In this document: positions 9,024-61,868 of the stretch, piece by piece
How the letters are laid out: every line of letters begins with the position of its first letter
Numbering within the stretch: position 1 is the stretch's first letter
Assembly: GCA_033286805.1 (NCBI GenBank)
Contig: GCA_033286805.1_4727.1
Strand: one strand, 5' to 3'
Source of the DNA: a phage
DNA: 64,000 nt
Notes under the pieces: model-generated
Seen by the model: the letters and a program-made list of their open reading frames with translations, nothing else
Databases searched by the model: none
Told to the model about the DNA's origin: nothing
Made by a program: the position numbers and the translations under genes

Positions 9024-9057
9024 CCTTCTCCCCAACCCGTAAGGGAAGGGGAGAAGG
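9024..9057. terminator. bidirectional GC-rich hairpin between convergent genes (CCTTCTCCCC / AACCCGTAAGGGAA / GGGGAGAAGG)
   Basis: perfect 10-bp stem; A8 run upstream on plus strand, so a T-run follows the hairpin on the minus strand; flanked by CATAG and CTATG. Confidence 0.6.
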
Positions 9058-15415: not shown

Positions 15416-15473
15416 CACCTAGGTAATGTAAGCGTCAAATTTTTTCTATTCGCAACGATAAACGGCATAGAAA
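15416..15473 (-). promoter_or_regulatory. conserved roughly 60-nt intergenic element, copy 1 (CACCTAGGTAATGTA ... GCATAGAAACC), upstream of gene 13829..15265
   Basis: shares the CACCTAGGTAATGTA box and the CATAGAA box with copies at 21897 and 59195; sits immediately 3' (on the minus strand) of a GC-rich hairpin. Confidence 0.45.
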
Positions 15474-15502
15474 CCTCCCCCAACCCTTACGGGCTGAGGG
15501 AG
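15474..15502 (-). terminator. GC-rich hairpin downstream of the candidate capsid gene (CCTCCC...GGGAGG)
   Basis: inverted repeat with inner CCC-TTAC-GGG; lies between the capsid stop (15603) and the next promoter-like element. Confidence 0.5.
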
Positions 15503-15602
15503 GCTGACTTATGTATCACGGTGCCGGATGAATGTCCGGTGCAATGAAACCATCCGCAACGTTGTCGTCAAGAATATCATCCAACGAAGCAGCTACGGTA
15601 GT

Positions 15603-20245: not shown

Positions 20246-20270
20246 ACGCAAAAAAAAAGATTGTGCGGTT

Positions 20271-20302
20271 CCCTCCTCCAACCCGTAAGGGAAGGAGGAG
20301 GG
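20271..20302. terminator. bidirectional GC-rich hairpin between convergent genes (CCCTCCTCC / AACCCGTAAGGGAA / GGAGGAGGG)
   Basis: perfect 9-bp stem; A9 run upstream on plus strand (T-run after the hairpin for the minus-strand transcript); GTTATGACC follows on plus strand. Confidence 0.6.
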
Positions 20303-20318
20303 GTTATGACCGCTTTGA

Positions 20319-21955: not shown

Positions 21956-21987
21956 CCCTCTCCCAACCCAGCAGGGAAGGGAGAGGG
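21956..21987 (-). terminator. GC-rich hairpin (CCCTCTCCC / AACCCAGCAGGGAA / GGGAGAGGG)
   Basis: perfect 9-bp stem immediately after the stop of gene 21994..22626; followed on the minus strand by TTCTATGCTGTCTTATTTCG. Confidence 0.55.
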
Positions 21988-33848: not shown

Positions 33849-33880
33849 CCTTCCTCCAACCCAACAGGGAAGGAGGAAGG
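33849..33880 (-). terminator. GC-rich hairpin (CCTTCCTCC / AACCCAACAGGGAA / GGAGGAAGG)
   Basis: perfect 9-bp stem after the stop of gene 33891..35180; followed on the minus strand by TTTTATGACG. Confidence 0.55.
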
Positions 33881-36554: not shown

Positions 36555-36586
36555 CCCTCTCCCAACCCGTCAGGGAAGGGAGAGGG
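36555..36586 (-). terminator. GC-rich hairpin (CCCTCTCCC / AACCCGTCAGGGAA / GGGAGAGGG)
   Basis: perfect 9-bp stem immediately after the stop of the highly biased 440-aa gene; TATG on both flanks. Confidence 0.6.
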
Positions 36587-44830: not shown

Positions 44831-44862
44831 CCCTCCTCCAACCCGTCAGGGAAGGAGGAGGG
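44831..44862. terminator. bidirectional GC-rich hairpin between convergent genes (CCCTCCTCC / AACCCGTCAGGGAA / GGAGGAGGG)
   Basis: perfect 9-bp stem between the plus-strand stop (44808) and minus-strand stop (44872); TATG on both flanks. Confidence 0.6.
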
Positions 44863-53358: not shown

Positions 53359-55110
53359 ATGAGCGAACAAGAACGAAAACCTAAGAAGAAACTGCTCGGT
53401 ATTCAATGTCGACACATCAGCTATAACGAAGCGAACGATGGCAGCAAGAACGACCTCATGATCGCAAAAGAGATCATGTTCTTCGATGATAATACGCAAG
53501 CGACGAATCTTCGCTTCTTCGAGAATTACAAACGTCCGTTTTGGGTGACGGTAGAGAGTAAACGTAAGAACAAATATAAAAAGGAAAGCGAGAAGCTCTC
53601 GCATGTGCGTCGCTATGATGTCCGCCAAAGTGAACTGGTTGAAAAGATCAGTTCGGTGCTTTATAAAAGACGTGCTGATGACAACACCCGTCTACAGCAG
53701 CTTGCACGGAGTCCATACCTCTATGGCACGGACGTTAGCGCCAGCTGTTATTTAAAAACCCAGTACAACACAAAATGGCCGGAATACGTCGATAAATTAC
53801 CCGCTTCCATTGCCTGTTTCGATATCGAAACCGACGTTGTCCACGGGCACGGTAAGATCGTCTGTATGTCTATTACAATGGGATACAATGCGATACTTTG
53901 CTATACCAAGGACTTCGTTGGTCATATTCCGAATGCGATTGAGAAAACCCATGAGAAGATTCGATATTACCTGGCCGAACGTCTGAATACCAAAGAAGAT
54001 CCTCATGCGTTCGAAAAATATCATTACGATGTGCGAATCGTAGAAAGTCCGGCGCAAGCAGTCATCCAGTGCATGCAGAAGGTTCACGAATGGCAGCCGG
54101 ATTATCTCCTTGGCTGGAATATCGCGTTCGATATTCCGCGCATGCTCCAGGCACTGAACGAGGAAGGGTATCGTCCCGAGGATGTTTTCTCCGATCCTCG
54201 TGTACCACCTAAATATCGTATTGCTCGCTGGGTACCACCGAAGACAGACAAGGTATCTGCTTCAGGTCGTAAAACCAACCTTACCCTTGAGCAGACCTGG
54301 CCGATGTTTTATACGATGGCCACATACCAGGTTATGGATGCGATGTGCGGTTATAAGTTCGTTCGTTTAGGAAGACCGGATGAAGGACGCTATTCACTCG
54401 ATGCGGTGTTAGAGCGAAATAAATGCCATACGAAATTAAAAGCGATTCCTGGTACAGAGGGGTTCACGGAGCTTGCGTGGCACGAAGAGATGCAAACGAA
54501 CCATCAAATCGACTACGGCGTATATAACCTTTGGGATAACCAGGGTATCGAGGCGTTGGACCAGAAAACAAAAGACTATTCGATGACCATCCCTATTCGT
54601 TTGGCGGCGTCGGATTTGAAAGATTTCAGTTCTAACCCTAAACGTATCTGTGACAAACTTTTCTTCGTTTATCTTAACCGTGGGGAAGTCATGGGATGCA
54701 CTGCCGACGACATGACCCAGGAAGAAGATAAGTGGGTTATCTCACGAACCGGACATATCGTCACATTACCGTGCGATCTCATGGCGGACAACGGCATTCA
54801 TCTCTTCTGGGATATGCCGAACCTGAGAAGTTATATCCGTCTATTCGTTGCAGACCTCGACATTAGCAGTTCATACCCAAACGGGCAGATCCTGTTGAAT
54901 TTATCCAGAGCATGTGTTTTTCGTGAGCTCTCGCGCATTGAAGGCGTCTCTGACTATCAATTCAGGAAGTTAGGTATCAACTTTATTACCGGAGGTAAAA
55001 CGAACGCTGTAGACTTCTGTAGAATCGTTTATAAAGCACCATCGATGTTCGAACTCTTAGAACATTTCGATGCAACGCGTCCAAAAGGGGAAGCGCGGAC
55101 CATCGAATGA
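53359..55110 (+). CDS. family-B DNA polymerase, N-terminal fragment (3'-5' exonuclease domain plus palm motif A) of a split polymerase
   Basis: Exo I FDIETD (aa 154-159), Exo II GWNIAFDIP (aa 252-260), Exo III YNLWD (aa 389-393), motif A DISSSYPNGQILLNLS (aa 501-516); gene ends about 80 aa after motif A with no motif B or C. Confidence 0.6.
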   Translation: MSEQERKPKKKLLGIQCRHISYNEANDGSKNDLMIAKEIMFFDDNTQATNLRFFENYKRPFWVTVESKRKNKYKKESEKLSHVRRYDVRQSELVEKISSVLYKRRADDNTRLQQLARSPYLYGTDVSASCYLKTQYNTKWPEYVDKLPASIACFDIETDVVHGHGKIVCMSITMGYNAILCYTKDFVGHIPNAIEKTHEKIRYYLAERLNTKEDPHAFEKYHYDVRIVESPAQAVIQCMQKVHEWQPDYLLGWNIAFDIPRMLQALNEEGYRPEDVFSDPRVPPKYRIARWVPPKTDKVSASGRKTNLTLEQTWPMFYTMATYQVMDAMCGYKFVRLGRPDEGRYSLDAVLERNKCHTKLKAIPGTEGFTELAWHEEMQTNHQIDYGVYNLWDNQGIEALDQKTKDYSMTIPIRLAASDLKDFSSNPKRICDKLFFVYLNRGEVMGCTADDMTQEEDKWVISRTGHIVTLPCDLMADNGIHLFWDMPNLRSYIRLFVADLDISSSYPNGQILLNLSRACVFRELSRIEGVSDYQFRKLGINFITGGKTNAVDFCRIVYKAPSMFELLEHFDATRPKGEARTIE

Positions 55111-55157: not shown

Positions 55158-55196
55158 GCCCCTCCCCCTGGCGGAAGCCGGAGGGAGGGGTGGAGG
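55158..55196. terminator. GC-rich imperfect hairpin with T-run, shared terminator for the polymerase fragment (plus) and gene 55209..55682 (minus)
   Basis: CCTCCC...GGGAGG arms followed by TTTTATGTGTTTTT on the plus strand. Confidence 0.5.
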
Positions 55197-55208: not shown

Positions 55209-55682
55209 TTAATTATTGTTGGTGGGGTTATCGTCCGGTTTATATTCAATGCCGTAGGCGACGTAACGGTCTGTTGTATGGACGACAAGCGAGATAGGGA
55301 AATCATAATGCATAGTTTTGTCTCGAACGAGCTGAGTAAAGAGATCCATATAACGTATTAAGTCTTCACTGGTGTAATCAGAAGGGAAGAAGACATCGAT
55401 GGTTATTGAATCTTCATAGAGGCGTATGACCAACTTATCCAGAAGGTCGGCATATTGGTTAGCCGGGGTGACGTCCAGCTGACAGATGTCACGATCTCCT
55501 TCGTCTCGCGATACCCACATCGTGGTATCCTGTAATGAGGTTTCAAGGATCTCGAAAACACATTTTGCTGTAAGTCTTAGTTTATTTGTTACGTCATGGT
55601 TAGGTGAATAATGGTCACGGATGTTTTTCACTGCGTCTTTGATAGAGAAAGTCATTGTTGCTGTTCCTGTTATAGTCAACAT
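55209..55682 (-). CDS. small hypothetical protein (157 aa), member of a small paralog family
   Basis: ORF track; C-terminal motif ...DFPISL...YGIEYKPDDN shared with the 152-aa and 164-aa genes. Confidence 0.55.
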   Translation of the reverse strand: MLTITGTATMTFSIKDAVKNIRDHYSPNHDVTNKLRLTAKCVFEILETSLQDTTMWVSRDEGDRDICQLDVTPANQYADLLDKLVIRLYEDSITIDVFFPSDYTSEDLIRYMDLFTQLVRDKTMHYDFPISLVVHTTDRYVAYGIEYKPDDNPTNNN

Positions 55683-55685
55683 ATA

Positions 55686-55716
55686 GCCCTTCCCTAGCCG
55701 TCAAGGCCGGGGAAGG
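55686..55716 (-). terminator. GC-rich hairpin (CCTTCCC...GGGAAGG)
   Basis: inverted repeat between the small genes; followed on the plus strand by GGTATGTTT. Confidence 0.45.
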
Positions 55717-55732
55717 GTATGTTTACGTGTAA

Positions 55733-56128
55733 TTACTTTTTGGCGTCCGTTGGTGATTCAGTATGTTTCTCGCTGCTGGTGTACCAGAGTAGGTATGTCG
55801 GGAAAAGATTAACCTCTAAGCTAAACGGGATATTATATTTTTCTTCCATTTTGCAGAGATGTTCTTTAAGTAAATCCCTTGCTTCTTTGTTACGGCGAGC
55901 GGAGTGCCAATGTAGTTCTTCGTTCTCCTTTACCAGTACTTCTACAATGATACGCTGCTCGTGAACCTCGGTTTTCACAATAGCAAGTAAATCGTTACTA
56001 TCGAAACGGGTAAAACGAATGTACGAACCAGGCGTTTTTTCTTGTTTAACGATATCGATCATAGTAGAAATGTGTGGGTGATCGATGTTGTCGTTAACTG
56101 CTTTAACGATGGAATCTACAACGCTCAT
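55733..56128 (-). CDS. small hypothetical protein (131 aa)
   Basis: ORF track; ATG start. Confidence 0.5.
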   Translation of the reverse strand: MSVVDSIVKAVNDNIDHPHISTMIDIVKQEKTPGSYIRFTRFDSNDLLAIVKTEVHEQRIIVEVLVKENEELHWHSARRNKEARDLLKEHLCKMEEKYNIPFSLEVNLFPTYLLWYTSSEKHTESPTDAKK

Positions 56129-56168
56129 TTTTTTTTATCCTTAATGTTATCGGTTTAGAAATAATATT

Positions 56169-56933
56169 TTATTTGCTGTTATCTTTATCGACAGTTGTTA
56201 CCCATGATGGGAAAGCCGGATGGAAACAGAGCGTGAACGTAACCTTCGTATCGTATTTAAACGCACGGTCCACTAGCCGAGTATCGAACGTTTCCCTTAG
56301 ACCGTCATCATCGTTATCGATGACAGCCATATCCCTTAATATCCCAAGCACGTTAACGCCATCTGGTGTCTGGGTTACAACAAGTCGTCGTAATGGTCCG
56401 CATGTATAATCACGTACGTATCCTTTCTTCGGGTCCGATACTCTATTTAACGCATCGTGATTTTCGATGAATTCATCGGCAATACGAGTGATGTGTTCCC
56501 TTGCTTTATCTGGATCGTATTCTGCTAATAGTTCCTTCGTGTCGAATGTTATCGCGTTATTAGCATTCGATTCAGAAGGGAAACATAAAACTAAACGAAC
56601 AGGGTATTCGTATTGATCTGTTCTTGTTTCGAAAGCATTAGCTAAACACGGCTTGTATGCCTTTGCGTCGACATTGTCCAAACACGGATGCAATAATGCA
56701 TGAATAACGGCACCATCATCAGTTAAACCGAATTCCATAAATTGTGTTTCATCGGTGTCTGTTACGGTTTTCTGAAGGTACGCTTTACCGTTAACAATAT
56801 CGGTATCCCACATATCGTCGTTTAACGATTCTTCAAACTTATCGAATATATGGTTTACGAGATTGACGAGTTCATCAATACGGCACTGTTGGTTGAATTC
56901 GATTAATCGTTGAACTTTATCTTTGATAGACAT
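56169..56933 (-). CDS. hypothetical protein (254 aa), possibly a duplicated form of the small paralog fold
   Basis: ORF track; contains ...YEYPVRLVLCFP... and ...VTFTLCFHP... resembling the DFPI(S/T)L motif twice. Confidence 0.5.
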   Translation of the reverse strand: MSIKDKVQRLIEFNQQCRIDELVNLVNHIFDKFEESLNDDMWDTDIVNGKAYLQKTVTDTDETQFMEFGLTDDGAVIHALLHPCLDNVDAKAYKPCLANAFETRTDQYEYPVRLVLCFPSESNANNAITFDTKELLAEYDPDKAREHITRIADEFIENHDALNRVSDPKKGYVRDYTCGPLRRLVVTQTPDGVNVLGILRDMAVIDNDDDGLRETFDTRLVDRAFKYDTKVTFTLCFHPAFPSWVTTVDKDNSK

Positions 56934-56935
56934 GA

Positions 56936-57394
56936 TTACCCATTAGCTCCTTCTTCGTCTGGAGAGTATTCCATCGTGTAGAATTCATAACCGTCGGAAA
57001 ACTTGAGTGTTAATGTAATAGGGAAATCGCACGGCATAGCTGATTTCGTAAATGCGTTATTAGCAACATCAGCCAACCGACGTATAGCATCAGTCCCGCT
57101 GACGCTGAATGGTAGTTGTATGTTGATAAGGATGCGGTGCTTGTAAACATAGAAAACAACGGTGCTGTCAAGATAAACGCTATGGAACGGTATTGTTGGG
57201 ATGCGTTCCACGATGGTAAAATACGTCCCGTCATTATCGCTATGTCCCACCGACCAAATATCGGATTTGCGTAGATTTTGTTTGAGAGATTCGATACTTC
57301 GAGTGACGGTATCAGCAACAGGTGCGACGTAAGCGTCTTTATGCGAGTCGAAAAGTTCGTTGACGTTAGATTCGAATGAATACATTGTTGCCAT
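56936..57394 (-). CDS. small hypothetical protein (152 aa), small paralog family
   Basis: ORF track; C-terminal ...CDFPITLTLKFSDGYEFYTMEYSPDEE. Confidence 0.55.
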   Translation of the reverse strand: MATMYSFESNVNELFDSHKDAYVAPVADTVTRSIESLKQNLRKSDIWSVGHSDNDGTYFTIVERIPTIPFHSVYLDSTVVFYVYKHRILINIQLPFSVSGTDAIRRLADVANNAFTKSAMPCDFPITLTLKFSDGYEFYTMEYSPDEEGANG

Positions 57395-57460
57395 TATTCT
57401 ACCTCAATGGTTTAACCGATACGTGCCCCACCTAACAAGGGACACGTTATCGTTGATTAA

Positions 57461-57955
57461 TTACTCTTCTGTGTTTTCATTGTCTGGATCGTAGTGGAAT
57501 TCGAACAGCCCTGAACCGTCGTGCCCGTTGATTGTTAGTATAACGGGCATATCGAATCCTCGGACACGCGAATGAAAACACTGTGCTAATTTTAGTTTGG
57601 CATATGCCGCTATTTCATTGATGGCAATACACGACTCACCTGTTATACTCAGTATAACGTCGATACTAATGATGTTATCATGCAACGCAAAACGCCAGCG
57701 ATCGATACGATTATTATCTTTATCGGTTGTCTCGTTTACGAGATAGACTTTATCATCAACCGACAAAGCGGGACTCCAGCAACGTTCGTTTATTAAATTC
57801 GCCTGGAGTTTTAGTATCGTCTGATCGATAATATCCCAACACGTAACCAGCGTGGTGTCAGGCACTGAGTAGAGAAGGGCGTGCACTTTATCCTTTATTT
57901 TAAGTGCTTCCGCAGGACGTCCGCAAATACCATGCATTTCAACTTTCTTATTCAT
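57461..57955 (-). CDS. small hypothetical protein (about 164 aa), small paralog family
   Basis: ORF track start 57961 is GTG; ATG at 57955; C-terminal ...FDMPVILTINGHDGSGLFEFHYDPDNEN. Confidence 0.5.
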   Translation of the reverse strand: MNKKVEMHGICGRPAEALKIKDKVHALLYSVPDTTLVTCWDIIDQTILKLQANLINERCWSPALSVDDKVYLVNETTDKDNNRIDRWRFALHDNIISIDVILSITGESCIAINEIAAYAKLKLAQCFHSRVRGFDMPVILTINGHDGSGLFEFHYDPDNENTEE

Positions 57956-57998
57956 ATTCACTTCTTTCTTAATCTAAATGTTAGTTGGGGTGGGATGC

Positions 57999-58601
57999 TT
58001 ACATGCTTTCTAGCATATTGACGATCATGGAACCCATACCGAAACTCGGTCTTTCACCGATGTACTCAGCAAGCTGGCGATGGACGTCTTTTGGATTTCC
58101 TTCTTCACCATCGGCATCGATGTAAACCGAAAAAGAAACCGAATCGGAATCCACGCTGATAACCAGACGACGTTCATTGCGTTCCTTGAGCGTGTCGACG
58201 ATAGATGCTTTCAGTACCGGGATCGCATTCATCGCGTGCAAGATATCTCCATCGGGTTTCGGCAGATCGATCTTTTCTTTCAGGTCGATATTGATGTTGG
58301 TTACAATTGGGTTGAGGTCGACCTTGACGTAATCGTTAGGGTACATGCGAATAATCGCACGATCAATATCTGAACCGTAAAAGTCAACACGTGGCTTTAA
58401 CACTTCTTTGTTTGGATCCATGTTTTCATCCATACCTGCCTGCAAGAAACGTTCTACGTTATCCAGTTCACGATAAACTGACGCTTCGATTTCTTTCAGA
58501 TAGTTGGCTGCGGTTTCATGTTCTTTGCGCAGCTCGTCTTTAAGGAGCTGTACGGTGGTTTCACTGGAACGGATGCTGTTCGCGAATTGGGTAATTGACA
58601 T
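57999..58601 (-). CDS. hypothetical protein (200 aa)
   Basis: ORF track; ATG start. Confidence 0.55.
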   Translation of the reverse strand: MSITQFANSIRSSETTVQLLKDELRKEHETAANYLKEIEASVYRELDNVERFLQAGMDENMDPNKEVLKPRVDFYGSDIDRAIIRMYPNDYVKVDLNPIVTNINIDLKEKIDLPKPDGDILHAMNAIPVLKASIVDTLKERNERRLVISVDSDSVSFSVYIDADGEEGNPKDVHRQLAEYIGERPSFGMGSMIVNMLESM

Positions 58602-58657
58602 ATCGAATTCCTTAAATTATCTTGAGTTCAATTAATGATGAAAAGCTGTAAAAAAAA

Positions 58658-58675
58658 GGTGGGGCGAACCCCACC
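58658..58675. terminator. rho-independent-type terminator (GGTGGGG / CGAA / CCCCACC) flanked by A/T runs on both sides
   Basis: 7-bp GC stem with tetraloop; A8 upstream and A4 downstream on plus strand, giving a T8 run after the hairpin on the minus strand. Confidence 0.65.
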
Positions 58676-58700: not shown

Positions 58701-59126
58701 TTAATTCAGTGATGCATATAACGCGTAACGACTGTAGATCTCAACCGCCGGTCCGTTATGCGTTAACAGACCATCCTGGTTGTAATATTGGAAAAATGAA
58801 TAACGTTTGTCGAAGTGATAAACAAAAGCAATGTCTTTGCTGCCAAGACCTGTGATGCGTGGTCTGTTTTTATCTAGCAGAGCTTTGACTTTTAACAGTG
58901 TTGCCGCACGTGCTTTAACGTTAGGGATCAAGCCATCACAATCGATATAAACTGTGTAACCTGTTTCAGATGTTGCGACGGTTGTATTACGATTGACGCG
59001 GAAGATTTTTGTTTCGTATGTACTATCTTCAAGAATTGGGTTTTGTTTTTCGTATTTTCGTTTACGTAGAAATTCTACAACGGTGATATAGTTAGCGGTG
59101 ATATGTCCGGTTATAGCTTGTAACAT
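58701..59126 (-). CDS. hypothetical protein (141 aa)
   Basis: ORF track; first gene downstream of the conserved element copy 3. Confidence 0.55.
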   Translation of the reverse strand: MLQAITGHITANYITVVEFLRKRKYEKQNPILEDSTYETKIFRVNRNTTVATSETGYTVYIDCDGLIPNVKARAATLLKVKALLDKNRPRITGLGSKDIAFVYHFDKRYSFFQYYNQDGLLTHNGPAVEIYSRYALYASLN

Positions 59127-59173: not shown

Positions 59174-59253
59174 GATAAGATATTTTGCTCTTATCACTAA
59201 GGTAATGTAGTCGCGAAATAAACTGCGTTAAAACGAAATAAAACAGCATAGAA
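59174..59253 (-). promoter_or_regulatory. conserved roughly 60-nt intergenic element, copy 3, with abutting 7-bp palindrome GATAAGA-N8-TCTTATC
   Basis: near-identical to copy 2 (CACTAAGGTAATGTAGTCGCGAAATAAACTG...CGAAATAAAACAGCATAGAAACC); 68 nt upstream of the ATG at 59126. Confidence 0.5.
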
Positions 59254-59296
59254 ACCTCCTCCCCCATCCTTCAAGAGGACGGTGGGAAGAGGGAGA
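59254..59296 (-). terminator. GC-rich variant hairpin after gene 59299..59700
   Basis: CCTCCTCCCCC...GGGAAGAGGGAGAG imperfect inverted repeat with inner TCCT-TCAA-GAGGA. Confidence 0.4.
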
Positions 59297-59298
59297 GA

Positions 59299-59700
59299 TT
59301 AAATGTCGTGGACGGCAATGCCGTTTAACCAGCAATACAGCTTAACGCGACAGGAATACCGCTTCGTTGCGGCAACCATTTCATCGCGTAAACGCTGGTA
59401 GATTTCATCCTGGTGTTCACGATCAATGGGGTAATCAGCCCAACATTCGATCATGACGTCACCATTCGTCAGAATCGTCGTACGCATCCTGTCCTGGATA
59501 CGGCGGTCTTTCCCGGCATTAGGGAAATACATTCCTTCAGTACGAATAAGGTCGCCGCAGGGCATGACTAACCATTCGTTCGTTTTGCCGGTATTCTTAT
59601 AATCCATTACAGCTTGCATTGCGGTGTCAACGCTAAAAGAAACATAATTCCAAACGGATGTCCAACGATAGATTGCGGGTTGTTCGAGTGTTTCGTTCAT
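59299..59700 (-). CDS. hypothetical protein (133 aa)
   Basis: ORF track; ATG start. Confidence 0.55.
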   Translation of the reverse strand: MNETLEQPAIYRWTSVWNYVSFSVDTAMQAVMDYKNTGKTNEWLVMPCGDLIRTEGMYFPNAGKDRRIQDRMRTTILTNGDVMIECWADYPIDREHQDEIYQRLRDEMVAATKRYSCRVKLYCWLNGIAVHDI

Positions 59701-59754
59701 GGAGTGCTTGTCCTATTTTTATTTTCTGCACAGGATAAATTCAACGGCATAAAG

Positions 59755-59786
59755 CCCTTCCCTGCCCTTATATGGGGCGGGAAGAG
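59755..59786 (-). terminator. GC-rich hairpin (CCCTTCCCTGCCC / TTATAT / GGGGCGGGAAG)
   Basis: imperfect inverted repeat in a 214-bp non-coding gap; GTTTATGACC follows on the plus strand. Confidence 0.4.
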
Positions 59787-59914: not shown

Positions 59915-60541
59915 TTATGCAAAGCGACGCATGTAACCTGCCAGATAGTTACGCGTATCGAAGTAGGCAATTTCAGGAATTGCGATATTAAGGTCGATAG
60001 CACGGATTTCAACTTGGCGACGGCTTTCATCATAGATCGCATCCATCAGACGCAGTACTGTCAGGAAAGCCATGCGGGTATGGTAGTCCAGCGGCATGTT
60101 ATCGATACCGCGATACAGATAACGGTTTGCGTTAAATGCCCCTTCGCTGTTATCTTTCCAGATCTTCAGAATATCAGCAAAGGCGGTGCGGAAAACCTCA
60201 GGATTATCCACATCCAGTAACGCACGGAAAGCAGACATTAAAGACCGCTGATGACGGATCAACGACTGCGGCGTTTGCGGCATGGTCGGACCCATTTCTT
60301 CCGCATATTTCTGGAACGGAGCAACCAGGGTTGCGGCACGAGAAGCCACGATAGAAATAACAGGCGATTCTTTCACCACCGGTTTCGCAGGCTTTTCTTC
60401 AACAACGGTTTCCTTCTTCTCAACAGCGACCGTTTCCGGCTGTGCTACAACATCACTAACCGGAGCATCGGCAACGGTGGTTTCTACCGCAGTAATCTCC
60501 TCGTCCATTTTTGCAGAACGTTGGTCTTTATTCTTGCTCAT
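59915..60541 (-). CDS. hypothetical protein (208 aa)
   Basis: ORF track; ATG start; operonic with the upstream gene. Confidence 0.55.
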   Translation of the reverse strand: MSKNKDQRSAKMDEEITAVETTVADAPVSDVVAQPETVAVEKKETVVEEKPAKPVVKESPVISIVASRAATLVAPFQKYAEEMGPTMPQTPQSLIRHQRSLMSAFRALLDVDNPEVFRTAFADILKIWKDNSEGAFNANRYLYRGIDNMPLDYHTRMAFLTVLRLMDAIYDESRRQVEIRAIDLNIAIPEIAYFDTRNYLAGYMRRFA

Positions 60542-60566: not shown

Positions 60567-61868
60567 TTAACTAATATAAAGTTCAGGATCGTAAGGCGCT
60601 AACGATACACTGGCGTTATGCATTGCTTTCATCATAGTGTTCATGAAAACGTTGTTTACACCGGTGATCTCTGCCCCGATCGCGTCTGGGGTTGGAGCCA
60701 TCGCGTTACCGCAACAGGTAGCACAGTATTCCAATGGGCCTGCTTTACAACGTTGAGGATCACGTAACTTGATGGTTTGTCCTTCCAAGGAAGCAAGTAA
60801 TTCAGCATCAATAAGTTTAAGCGCCGCGCCGTCGATCATGTAACGACCGACAAGCAGCTTATCTTTGACATGATCGCGGTTTACCGTGAACAGAATATGT
60901 TCGTGGGTACCACAGTCGTCCATCGTGATTTTAAGGTTCTGTGTCGCACGCTGTGATTCTTTCGCCGTCTGTCCCGCTAAAGCGGTCAGTGCGCCACGTG
61001 AGAACGAACCTGCACGTGCACTGTTGTTGTACTCCGCCCAATGGTCGACACGCATCCCTTCAGCCAGGCTGTGTGTGATAACGTTACGTTTACCAGGGTC
61101 AACGAAGTCGGCTTCAACCCCCATCATGATGTGCGTTTTCTTTCGAGTATTACCGAAACTCTTGCCAGGGTTAATATAAAACCCTTCCGATTCATCACCC
61201 TTAAAGGATTCCTTATCCATTTTGGTTAGCGTGGCTTCGAGTTTGATCAGTTCTTCAGGTGTGAACTTACCTTCCTCTTGTAAGCGTGCTAACTCTTTAT
61301 CACGATAGGCAATAATATCATCATCGACCGTTAACGCTTTATCGCTCATCGATGGGACAATTAAACGGTTGATAGCGGTTAACGCACTGATATTGTTGGT
61401 GAATTTCTTCACTTCGCTTGCGTACAGCGGGCCAATAGGACGTTCGTTAGGATCGGGTATCCCCTCTTCGGGATCGTCCGCTACGCGTGGCGCAATCAGT
61501 GATTCCAGTGTACCGCTGGTCAACCGCCCTGCCTGATATTCAATCTGAATACCAAAAGCATCATAAAGGACGTACATATTGAACAACGCTTCACCGAAGG
61601 TTGTGGTGGTCGTATTCTTAACCGACGGTAGATCACCAGGTGCAAGCTCCAATGGCTCCCAGAAACTCAACAGGGGTTTTGTTGGCTCGGTTTCCCATTG
61701 GTGTTCTTCACCGTCGATGGTAACCGTAACGACGTTACCTTGACGACGTAATTTAGGCTGATACTTCTCAGCGCCGCCTTCCGTAAAAGCAAATGCGTCG
61801 TTAATCCATTCAAGATAACGGTAGTGCCCTTCACGCATCGCGTAAAGGAAATATTCACGAGGTGTCAT
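60567..61868 (-). CDS. possible multisubunit RNA polymerase beta-prime-like fragment (433 aa)
   Basis: AAGGAG RBS; segment ...ARAGSFSRGALTALAGQTAKESQRATQNLKITMDDCGTHEH... loosely resembles beta-prime region G (AAQSIGEPGTQLTMRTFH); Cys cluster CKAGPLEYCATCCGN near the C-terminus; weak motif-level evidence only. Confidence 0.35.
   Translation of the reverse strand: MTPREYFLYAMREGHYRYLEWINDAFAFTEGGAEKYQPKLRRQGNVVTVTIDGEEHQWETEPTKPLLSFWEPLELAPGDLPSVKNTTTTTFGEALFNMYVLYDAFGIQIEYQAGRLTSGTLESLIAPRVADDPEEGIPDPNERPIGPLYASEVKKFTNNISALTAINRLIVPSMSDKALTVDDDIIAYRDKELARLQEEGKFTPEELIKLEATLTKMDKESFKGDESEGFYINPGKSFGNTRKKTHIMMGVEADFVDPGKRNVITHSLAEGMRVDHWAEYNNSARAGSFSRGALTALAGQTAKESQRATQNLKITMDDCGTHEHILFTVNRDHVKDKLLVGRYMIDGAALKLIDAELLASLEGQTIKLRDPQRCKAGPLEYCATCCGNAMAPTPDAIGAEITGVNNVFMNTMMKAMHNASVSLAPYDPELYIS

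Follow-up and report, generated by a model that had tools for sequence, protein, structure and literature searches.

A variable array of small paralogous genes in a Goslar-like chimallivirus

The DNA under study is a 64,000-nucleotide stretch of a phage contig (GCA_033286805.1_4727.1 of GenBank assembly GCA_033286805.1), hereafter the window, and our subject is an array of small genes on its minus strand, between the gene for a virion RNA polymerase (vRNAP) subunit and the DNA polymerase gene. Over the 4.7 kb around the array, the sole match is Escherichia phage vB_EcoM_Goslar (92% identity, 64% coverage), and by its sequence the source phage is a Goslar-like chimallivirus; Goslar itself is a nucleus-forming jumbo phage of the Chimalliviridae and an E. 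coli model. An earlier note, made from the sequence alone, had read positions 55209-58601 as an array of paralogs interleaved with hairpins, and the open reading frames (ORFs) at the array match its description. We find four certain and two probable copies of one fold in five consecutive genes, so the proposed array stands, except that g200, which lies inside that range, is not a member. The copies are listed below in descending order of position.

57461-57955, minus strand: g166, ortholog of Goslar gp73; certain member of 164 residues from the ATG at 57955, with a GTG opening at 57961 also present (ORF 57461-57961)
56936-57394, minus strand: g152, ortholog of Goslar gp72; certain member
56169-56933, minus strand: g254, whole ORF
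56505-56933, minus strand: N-terminal domain of g254, residues 1-143; complete family member, ending ...AEYDPDK
56169-56504, minus strand: C-terminal domain of g254, residues 144-254; probable second, divergent copy
55733-56128, minus strand: g131; probable short, divergent member
55209-55655, minus strand: g157; certain member of 148 residues from the ATG at 55655, the annotated 157-residue ORF (55209-55682) starting inside a hairpin/TATG module

The starts of g166 at 57955 and of g157 at 55655 are the likely true ones, as judged from orthologs (P0122 and P0123; the g157 orthologs begin MTFSIKD, as in P0123). The four certain paralogs, namely g166, g152, the N-terminal half of g254 and g157, are only ~20-30% identical to one another, which indicates that the duplications are old, and their similarity on formal alignment is well above chance by every measure applied. 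Smith-Waterman pair scores were tested against 500 shuffles, none of which (0/500) reached the observed score for g152 and g157 (BLASTP E 1.8e-8, shuffle z 13.6), g152 and g166 (E 2e-6, z 12.3), g166 and residues 1-116 of the g254 N-terminal half (E 5e-5, z 10.1) or g157 and g166 (E 1e-3, z 5.5), and this rules out chance similarity among the paralogs. Cluster-to-cluster HHalign probabilities for the four lie at 84-96% (e.g. 93.7% for g166 to g152 and 93.3% for g166 to the g254 N-terminal half), and the latter reaches 99.9% against the family. A family hidden Markov model (HMM) returns the four copies, which are its own seed sequences, with E values of 1e-39 to 1e-58 (3e-41 for the g254 N-terminal half). 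It is of note that this half also occurs alone, as a 143-residue ORF, in one relative (L002). The C-terminal motif that had been pointed out in the genes of 157, 152 and about 164 residues is readily seen in g157 (HYDFPISLVV...IEYKPDDN), g152 (CDFPITLTLK...MEYSPDEE) and g166 (FDMPVILTIN...FHYDPDNEN), and in a weaker form at residues 108-142 of g254 (YEYPVRLVLC...AEYDPDK). The genes described as tandem small paralogs are thus true paralogs by BLASTP, shuffling and profile comparison alike.

Membership is probable for two further copies. The earlier note had suggested that the 254-residue protein contains the fold twice; the AlphaFold2 model has two domains with the same order of one helix, three strands, one helix and two strands, of which the first is a certain member and the second probably a divergent copy. 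In the C-terminal half, helices are predicted at residues 141-163 and 210-224 and strands at 171-175, 181-189, 192-199, 231-236 and 244-248, the element order being that of g152, and HHalign aligns this half to the family at 54-74% probability (E 1.3e-4 to 2.7e-5), in register on the helix and the 'YD..V.(F/L)TL' strand; its pairwise similarity to members is not significant in the shuffle test. The case of g131 is similar, in that pairwise similarity to members is again not significant by shuffling, a thin profile gives 4.7% and an enriched one 64% (E 6.5e-5, residues 42-118 against 70-142 of the family), and the strand KYNIPFSLEVN can be set beside the family's YDFPISLVV. Against the family HMM, g131 scores E 0.01-0.04, and when all 456 ORF segments of the window were scanned, the two matches that came closest below the threshold were g131, which is the best whole ORF, and the g254 C-terminal half; we consider g131 a probable divergent member on these profile matches. 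Controls behaved differently, with HHalign probabilities of 1.3% for g200, 0.2% for g141, 0.1% for g133 and at most 1.3% for Goslar gp70, and all four were rejected as members.

The family proteins are predicted to be acidic and soluble, of ~150 residues, with a two-layer alpha/beta domain of the order H-(H)-b-b-b-H-b-b (H, helix; b, strand). From a 30-sequence family alignment, AlphaFold2 models g152 with a predicted local distance difference test score (pLDDT) of 84 and a predicted template modeling score (pTM) of 0.75, as two helices, three strands, a helix and two strands, and the two-domain g254 model reaches a pLDDT of 78.6 and a pTM of 0.54. The conserved core strand has the sequence Y(D)FP(I/V)xL, and in most members the C terminus is (E/H)YxPD, a motif that subfamilies c5 and c7 lack. 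In a search of BFVD, the sole significant match of the g152 model is Goslar gp73, the g166 ortholog (E 9e-11, TM 0.71), which is also matched by the g254 model (E 5e-6); the gp73 entry is an independent prediction, and structure prediction of the paralogs, as the earlier note had proposed, therefore lends structural support to paralogy. Nothing beyond this Goslar paralog was returned by BFVD, a sequence profile search of the PDB gave no match at E up to 1, and no convincing fold relative was found outside the family.

The family is also narrow in distribution. Iterating the HMM built from the four copies over the ORFs of four related phages recruited proteins of 148, 153 and 169 residues as well as Goslar gp71, and HHalign joins nine ortholog clusters in one family, with probabilities of 88-99.8% along the best links. 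A word-indexed search of 5.8 billion proteins gave 157 matches, carried by E. coli, Salmonella and Shigella assemblies and gut metagenomes, and the longest contigs among the matches listed are ~215-260 kb, as Goslar-like genomes are. In an exhaustive HMMER scan of 1.84 billion representatives (50% identity, E <=1e-3), only 19 clusters were found, each of which on inspection is an array subfamily or a fragment thereof. Scans of Pfam, PHROGs and NCBIfam with eight array proteins and 30 family members gave nothing at curated cut-offs, tblastn of g152 against 50,697 phage records returned Goslar only, and Rfam had no match on the array. With no library match and so few clusters, the family is a previously undescribed one restricted to Goslar-like chimalliviruses. 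In the same library, PDB and BFVD searches, no sequence or fold match was found to described anti-defence, host-takeover or other curated families; Goslar gp70-gp76 are not named in the main text of the literature searched, and papers on Avs5/JADA and on persistent phages gave no link to the array.

The genes that frame the array, all but the last upstream of g166, are the following.

60567-61868, minus strand: ortholog of Goslar gp78, vRNAP subunit; upstream of the array on the same strand
59915-60541, minus strand: ortholog of Goslar gp77, capsid decorator; upstream of the array on the same strand
59299-59700, minus strand: g133, ortholog of Goslar gp76; conserved neighbor
58701-59126, minus strand: g141, ortholog of Goslar gp75; conserved neighbor
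57999-58601, minus strand: g200, ortholog of Goslar gp74; first gene of the g200-g166 sub-operon
53359-55110, plus strand: DNA polymerase; convergent, closing the array

The roles of gp78 and gp77 are as given for Goslar (bioRxiv 10.64898/2026.04.21.720040). We compared 19 loci in which the array is found downstream of the gene for the vRNAP subunit, 17 of them extending to the DNA polymerase gene, and clustered their array proteins into cassettes. The genes g133, g141, g200 and g166 are common to all 19. Downstream of them the order is fixed and presence varies: an optional cassette c10, then g152, followed by g254, g131 in one or two copies (it is duplicated in some relatives), a gp71-type gene, a 169-residue type, g157 or one of two alternative alleles in the last family slot, and gp70, each of those after g152 being optional. 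The window is without c10, the gp71 type and the 169-residue type, and g157 fills its last slot. Each genome has between three and eight clear family genes, so that copy number, a comparison the earlier note had called for, does differ among related phages. Traces of past rearrangement are also seen, for example in L008, where the first ~24 codons of g254 remain joined to the g131 leader, and in database sequences that include a chimera of the 169-residue type and g157 (P0124) and a g166 with an internal deletion (P0137). The hairpin, TATG and leader that precede g157 in the window stand before gp71 (cassette c5) in Goslar and other loci, and this heading of different genes by one module points to breakpoints in repeated regulatory and ribosome-binding-site sequences. 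In three other Goslar-like contigs from IMG/VR, the flanks are 94-96% identical and the array is partly unalignable, and the minimum of guanine-plus-cytosine content in the window (0.414) falls at 56-58 kb, on the array, which supports its reading as an islet. The array arose by duplication and divergence and now changes by cassette loss, deletion between paralogs and replacement of whole alleles.

Optional genes outside the family are also found in these loci: one of 151 residues between g133 and g141 in three relatives (L002 12597-13052, L004 12555-13046, L009 5216-5671) and one of 121-122 residues between g200 and g166 in three relatives (L010 and L012 6855-7223, L014 8040-8405).

The distribution and variability of the family bear on a possible role as nucleus-related adaptors, in cargo-specific import or exclusion or in association with the shell, in which the (E/H)YxPD tail would bind one and the same phage partner. 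The phage belongs to the chimalliviruses, which employ several dedicated import factors, and a short conserved acidic C-terminal motif on divergent domains does suggest a shared partner. However, the HMMER scan places the family in no other chimallivirus, whereas the factors for import and the shell are conserved throughout that group; close relatives can dispense with members, and subfamilies c5 and c7 do without the motif. We therefore regard an adaptor role as improbable.

Whether the array proteins are made, and where they end up, can be judged from the published liquid chromatography-tandem mass spectrometry of Goslar virions (Table S4 of bioRxiv 10.64898/2026.04.21.720040), which concerns Goslar and not the present phage and in which the structural threshold is 5 copies per virion. 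Reported copies per virion are ~166 for gp70, which has no ortholog in the window, ~8 for gp74 (g200), ~3.7 for gp71, a family member also without an ortholog in the window, ~2.6 for gp76 (g133), 0.54 for gp72 (g152), 0.48 for gp75 (g141) and 0.40 for gp73 (g166). The family members gp71, gp72 and gp73 are thus all below the threshold, and for gp72 and gp73 the figures are like those of contaminants of the virion preparation, namely the subunits of the non-virion RNA polymerase. Because peptides are detected, and at contaminant level, the family proteins are translated and are not virion components in Goslar. It could nevertheless be argued that the paralogs are late morphogenetic or virion-associated accessory proteins, either packaged and ejected in low copy or acting as assembly chaperones, rather than effectors directed at the host. 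The array lies directly downstream of the gp78 and gp77 genes on the same strand, its hairpin and TATG modules resemble late promoters of phiKZ, gp70 and gp74 are present in virions, and gp71, a family member, is at ~3.7 copies. On the other hand, gp72 and gp73 at 0.4-0.5 copies behave like contaminants, the 28-protein virion model (bioRxiv 10.64898/2026.04.21.720040) lists no family member, and structural proteins are seldom present in one phage and absent from another when neighboring genes are at least 98% identical. A virion-accessory role is thus rather unlikely in our view.

The distribution of gp70 (cassette c12, L001 4097-4582) is a separate observation: it is found in 3 of the 19 loci and not in the window, and one would not expect close relatives to dispense with a virion-associated protein of such abundance.

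The array also differs from its surroundings in rate of change. Ratios of nonsynonymous to synonymous substitution (dN/dS) were estimated by the Nei-Gojobori method, with the following results.

vRNAP subunit and DNA polymerase: amino acid identity at least 98%, dN/dS 0.025-0.03
g133, g141 and g200: median identities 94-95%, dN/dS 0.10-0.12
Clear family slots: median identities 67-96%, dN/dS 0.19-0.43
g131 slot: median identity 47%, dN/dS 0.19
Three alleles of the last slot, compared mutually: identity 36-40%

The fastest-evolving slot is g152 (dN/dS 0.43, median identity 67%), in which the ratio peaks at 0.73-0.87 over residues 96-120, on the long helix, and falls to a minimum of 0.14 on the DFPI strand. 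The paralogs are under purifying but relaxed or diversifying constraint, and the proposal of a diversifying family is borne out by the contrast with the flanking polymerases in both dN/dS and identity. The same data speak to the idea that the copies have no function and are duplicates in decay, within an islet prone to recombination, with ORFs kept only through recent duplication. Deletions, truncations and chimeras are indeed frequent (P0124, P0137, the 143-residue half gene of L002 and the L008 remnant), and constraint is relaxed relative to the neighbors. However, dN/dS is clearly below 1 in every slot, ORFs in the 19 loci are intact except for the L002 half gene and the L008 remnant despite the age of the duplications, peptides are detected and the fold is confidently predicted, all of which makes decay very improbable; pseudogenes in particular are ruled out by the dN/dS values and the peptides.

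The intergenic elements of the array and its upstream neighbors are given below, with predicted folding free energies (dG).

57421-57447, minus strand: hairpin ACGTGTCCC-9 nt loop-GGGGCACGT between g166 and g152, with neither TATG nor a T-run after it on the coding strand
55680-55717, minus strand: hairpin CCCTTCCCC...GGGAAGGG (55687-55717), then CTATATG (TATG 55683-55680); predicted dG about -23 to -26 kcal/mol
55159-55190, no strand assigned: hairpin CCCCTCCCTCCGGC...GCCAGGGGGAGGGG between the convergent g157 and DNA polymerase genes; dG -30.8 kcal/mol
58650-58675, minus strand: canonical intrinsic terminator GGTGGGGTTCGCCCCACC followed by T8, between g141 and g200; an annotated terminator in Goslar
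59247-59292, minus strand: hairpin 59255-59292 with TTTCTATG (TATG 59250-59247), upstream of g141
59748-59784, minus strand: hairpin with GGCTTTATG (TATG 59751-59748), upstream of g133

The three hairpins that the earlier note had placed at 55158, 55686 and 57422 are thus found at 55159-55190, 55687-55717 and 57421-57447. Its picture of hairpin/TATG modules between the genes holds only in part, since g152 and g254 are 2 nt apart, no hairpin lies between g254 and g131 or between g200 and g166, and within the array range TATG accompanies only the 55687-55717 hairpin; on the minus strand it follows hairpins at 55683, 59250 and 59751 and is missing after 57421-57447. The suggestion of separate transcriptional units survives as sub-operons and not gene by gene: the elements bound g133, g141, g200-g166, g152-g254-g131 and g157, the last three of which are the sub-operons of the array range, and one hairpin-bounded unit per gene was rejected on intergenic anatomy. 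A U-tract of the intrinsic-terminator kind is present only at 58650-58675, the CCCTYCC-type hairpins having strong stems and no T-run on the coding strand. Related loci retain the hairpin at 57421-57447, which there precedes cassette c10 or c4, and that at 55159-55190, downstream of the array, is kept in all loci and is a putative bidirectional terminator. Late promoters of phiKZ, which its non-virion RNA polymerase uses, have TATG as their core and start transcription at the G (PMC4666361), and conserved-sequence terminators are described for phiKZ and 201phi2-1. By analogy, the module at 55680-55717 may combine a terminator with a phiKZ-type late promoter that heads the last sub-operon; if the rule of phiKZ applies here, the transcript starts past the ATG at 55682 and g157 would begin at 55655, as its orthologs do. 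Sites resembling sigma-70 promoters number 14 against 12.8 expected by shuffles, which is not above chance.

The hairpin element, with or without TATG, is genome-wide and not specific to the array: the window holds 20 strong hairpins (dG <=-19 kcal/mol), of which 12-13 have a TATG within 12 nt. A repeated form, CCCTCYCC-AACCCGTNAGGG-AAGGRGAGGG, is seen at about 9024-9057, 15472-15505, 20270-20303, 21956-21987, 33849-33880, 36555-36586 and 44831-44862. Hairpins of this CCCTCYCC...GGRGAGGG type, to which many of the 20 belong, usually stand between CATA and T(T/C)TATG, often on both strands, and by analogy they are probably the terminator/promoter module of the clade. In the spacer between the g133 and g141 orthologs of L008 (5662-5888), an extra palindromic insertion of ~55 nt (GTGACACAGGTCACTAAGGCGATGCGTTTTGTTAATAACAAAACGCAACCTAGGTGA) was observed that is found neither in the window nor in the other loci inspected.

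Other observations concern the surroundings of the array. The DNA polymerase gene is unbroken in the window (583 residues, 53359-55110, plus strand), whereas in Goslar and several relatives a NUMOD1/HNH homing-endonuclease gene is inserted, leaving parts of 499 residues and a C-terminal ~84 residues (L001 498-3277, L005 11528-14812, and L009, L014 and L002). Between g200 and g141 there is a brief local likeness (SVYIDADGEEGNPKD vs TVYIDCDGLIPNVKA; shuffle z 4.5, HHalign 17.7% over 24 columns), which may reflect either common descent or a motif that both have. In relatives, the neighborhood of the array includes a gene for a 169-residue protein with a weak Macro-domain match (L011 951-1460, L013 419-928, L018 958-1467), about 5 kb past the vRNAP gene and outside the window; a chimallivirus DarG2-like macrodomain anti-defence protein has recently been described (PMC13309987).

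With these constraints in place, we tentatively propose that the paralogs act inside the cell by binding factors of the host or of competitors, a reading that we hold as a serious possibility falling a little short of probable. Each paralog would be a non-structural binder in which the conserved core serves as scaffold and the long variable helix and loops confer specificity for different host or competitor proteins. If the paralogs are such specific binders, the set would form a dispensable, strain-specific repertoire for host interaction or counter-defence, and an anti-host or anti-defence role is plausible. Expression would come from three sub-operons bounded by the conserved hairpins, two of them probably with a phiKZ-type TATG promoter at the head, from which the non-virion RNA polymerase would transcribe, and the repeated hairpin and leader modules, together with the similar 5' ends of the genes, would provide short homologies at which cassettes are lost or swapped. 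Several points weigh against this proposal. The late-type promoter context and the structural neighbors (gp78 and gp77) are atypical for early host-takeover genes, and the TATG beside the hairpins is often mirrored by CATA and could merely extend the palindrome. No window-wide dN/dS exceeds 1, so that positive selection is not demonstrated, and synonymous divergence is also elevated in several slots (0.49 in g152 vs ~0.2 in the flanks), which means that the divergence may partly reflect old alleles moved by recombination instead of rapid adaptation. A bolder form of the binder proposal, which we consider unlikely, is that the array constitutes a combinatorial specificity repertoire of Goslar-like phages, in which one scaffold has given rise to eight or more paralogs and highly divergent alleles, each neutralizing or sensing a different host factor, e.g. 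cytoplasmic defence proteins outside the phage nucleus, while gain, loss and swapping of cassettes at the hairpin and leader modules tune host range or the carrier state.

For most genes of Goslar, the E. coli model among nucleus-forming phages, function is not assigned. The present analysis newly defines a clade-specific multigene family, with five adjacent genes here and up to about ten in relatives, and adds a model of the fold, the limits of the subfamilies, corrected starts of genes and a series of gene presence and absence over 19 genomes. This series amounts to a set of natural deletion mutants with which cytoplasmic counter-defence, host range and persistent infections could be probed, the last being the state in which Goslar-like phages are mostly found and a carrier state having been reported for the clade. 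Should the combinatorial repertoire prove real, cassette changes would tune host range or persistent carrier-state infections. As it stands, the accessory family is well supported and functionally anonymous, and of a kind already familiar from large phages.

The closest parallels in behavior lie outside the clade. In T4-like phages, polymorphic internal-protein (IP) cassette loci, or 'hyperplastic regions', which Repoila et al. in 1994 and Comeau et al. in 2007 are said to have described, reportedly also hold small non-essential ORFs in a fixed slot, present in one phage and absent from a near-identical one, and have repeated regulatory sequences on either side at which recombination can take place. 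An anti-restriction function is known for at least one T4 IP. The T4 IPs are packaged via a shared N-terminal capsid-targeting sequence, whereas the array proteins do not belong to the virion, form a set of true paralogs with a single fold and carry their conserved motif at the C terminus. Large eukaryotic DNA viruses offer a second parallel in their multigene families and 'gene accordions', such as K3L amplification in poxviruses and the multigene families (MGF) of African swine fever virus, which share with the array tandem paralogs, copy-number variation, recombination between paralogs, raised rates and a virus that builds its own replication compartment. Unlike those families, which have demonstrated host-immune targets, the array consists of old paralogs, as their 20-30% identity indicates, and varies mainly by loss. 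The likeness to the T4-like and eukaryotic-virus loci is one of behavior and not of sequence or fold.

Within the chimalliviruses, the adjacent duplicates gp22 and gp23 of Goslar (DUF7941; bioRxiv 10.64898/2026.04.21.720040) come from the same clade and likewise have no assigned function, but they are among the most abundant virion proteins and have a Pfam domain model, whereas the array family is non-structural, variable in copy number and without a matching model in Pfam or PHROGs. The regulatory elements, for their part, resemble those of phiKZ and 201phi2-1 (PMC4666361, PMC10914365, PMC11512511) in that GC-rich hairpins lie at gene ends throughout the genome and TATG just upstream of genes, whereas the CCCTCYCC...GGRGAGGG form is specific to the clade, with TATG placed 2-6 nt past the stem and often mirrored by CATA.

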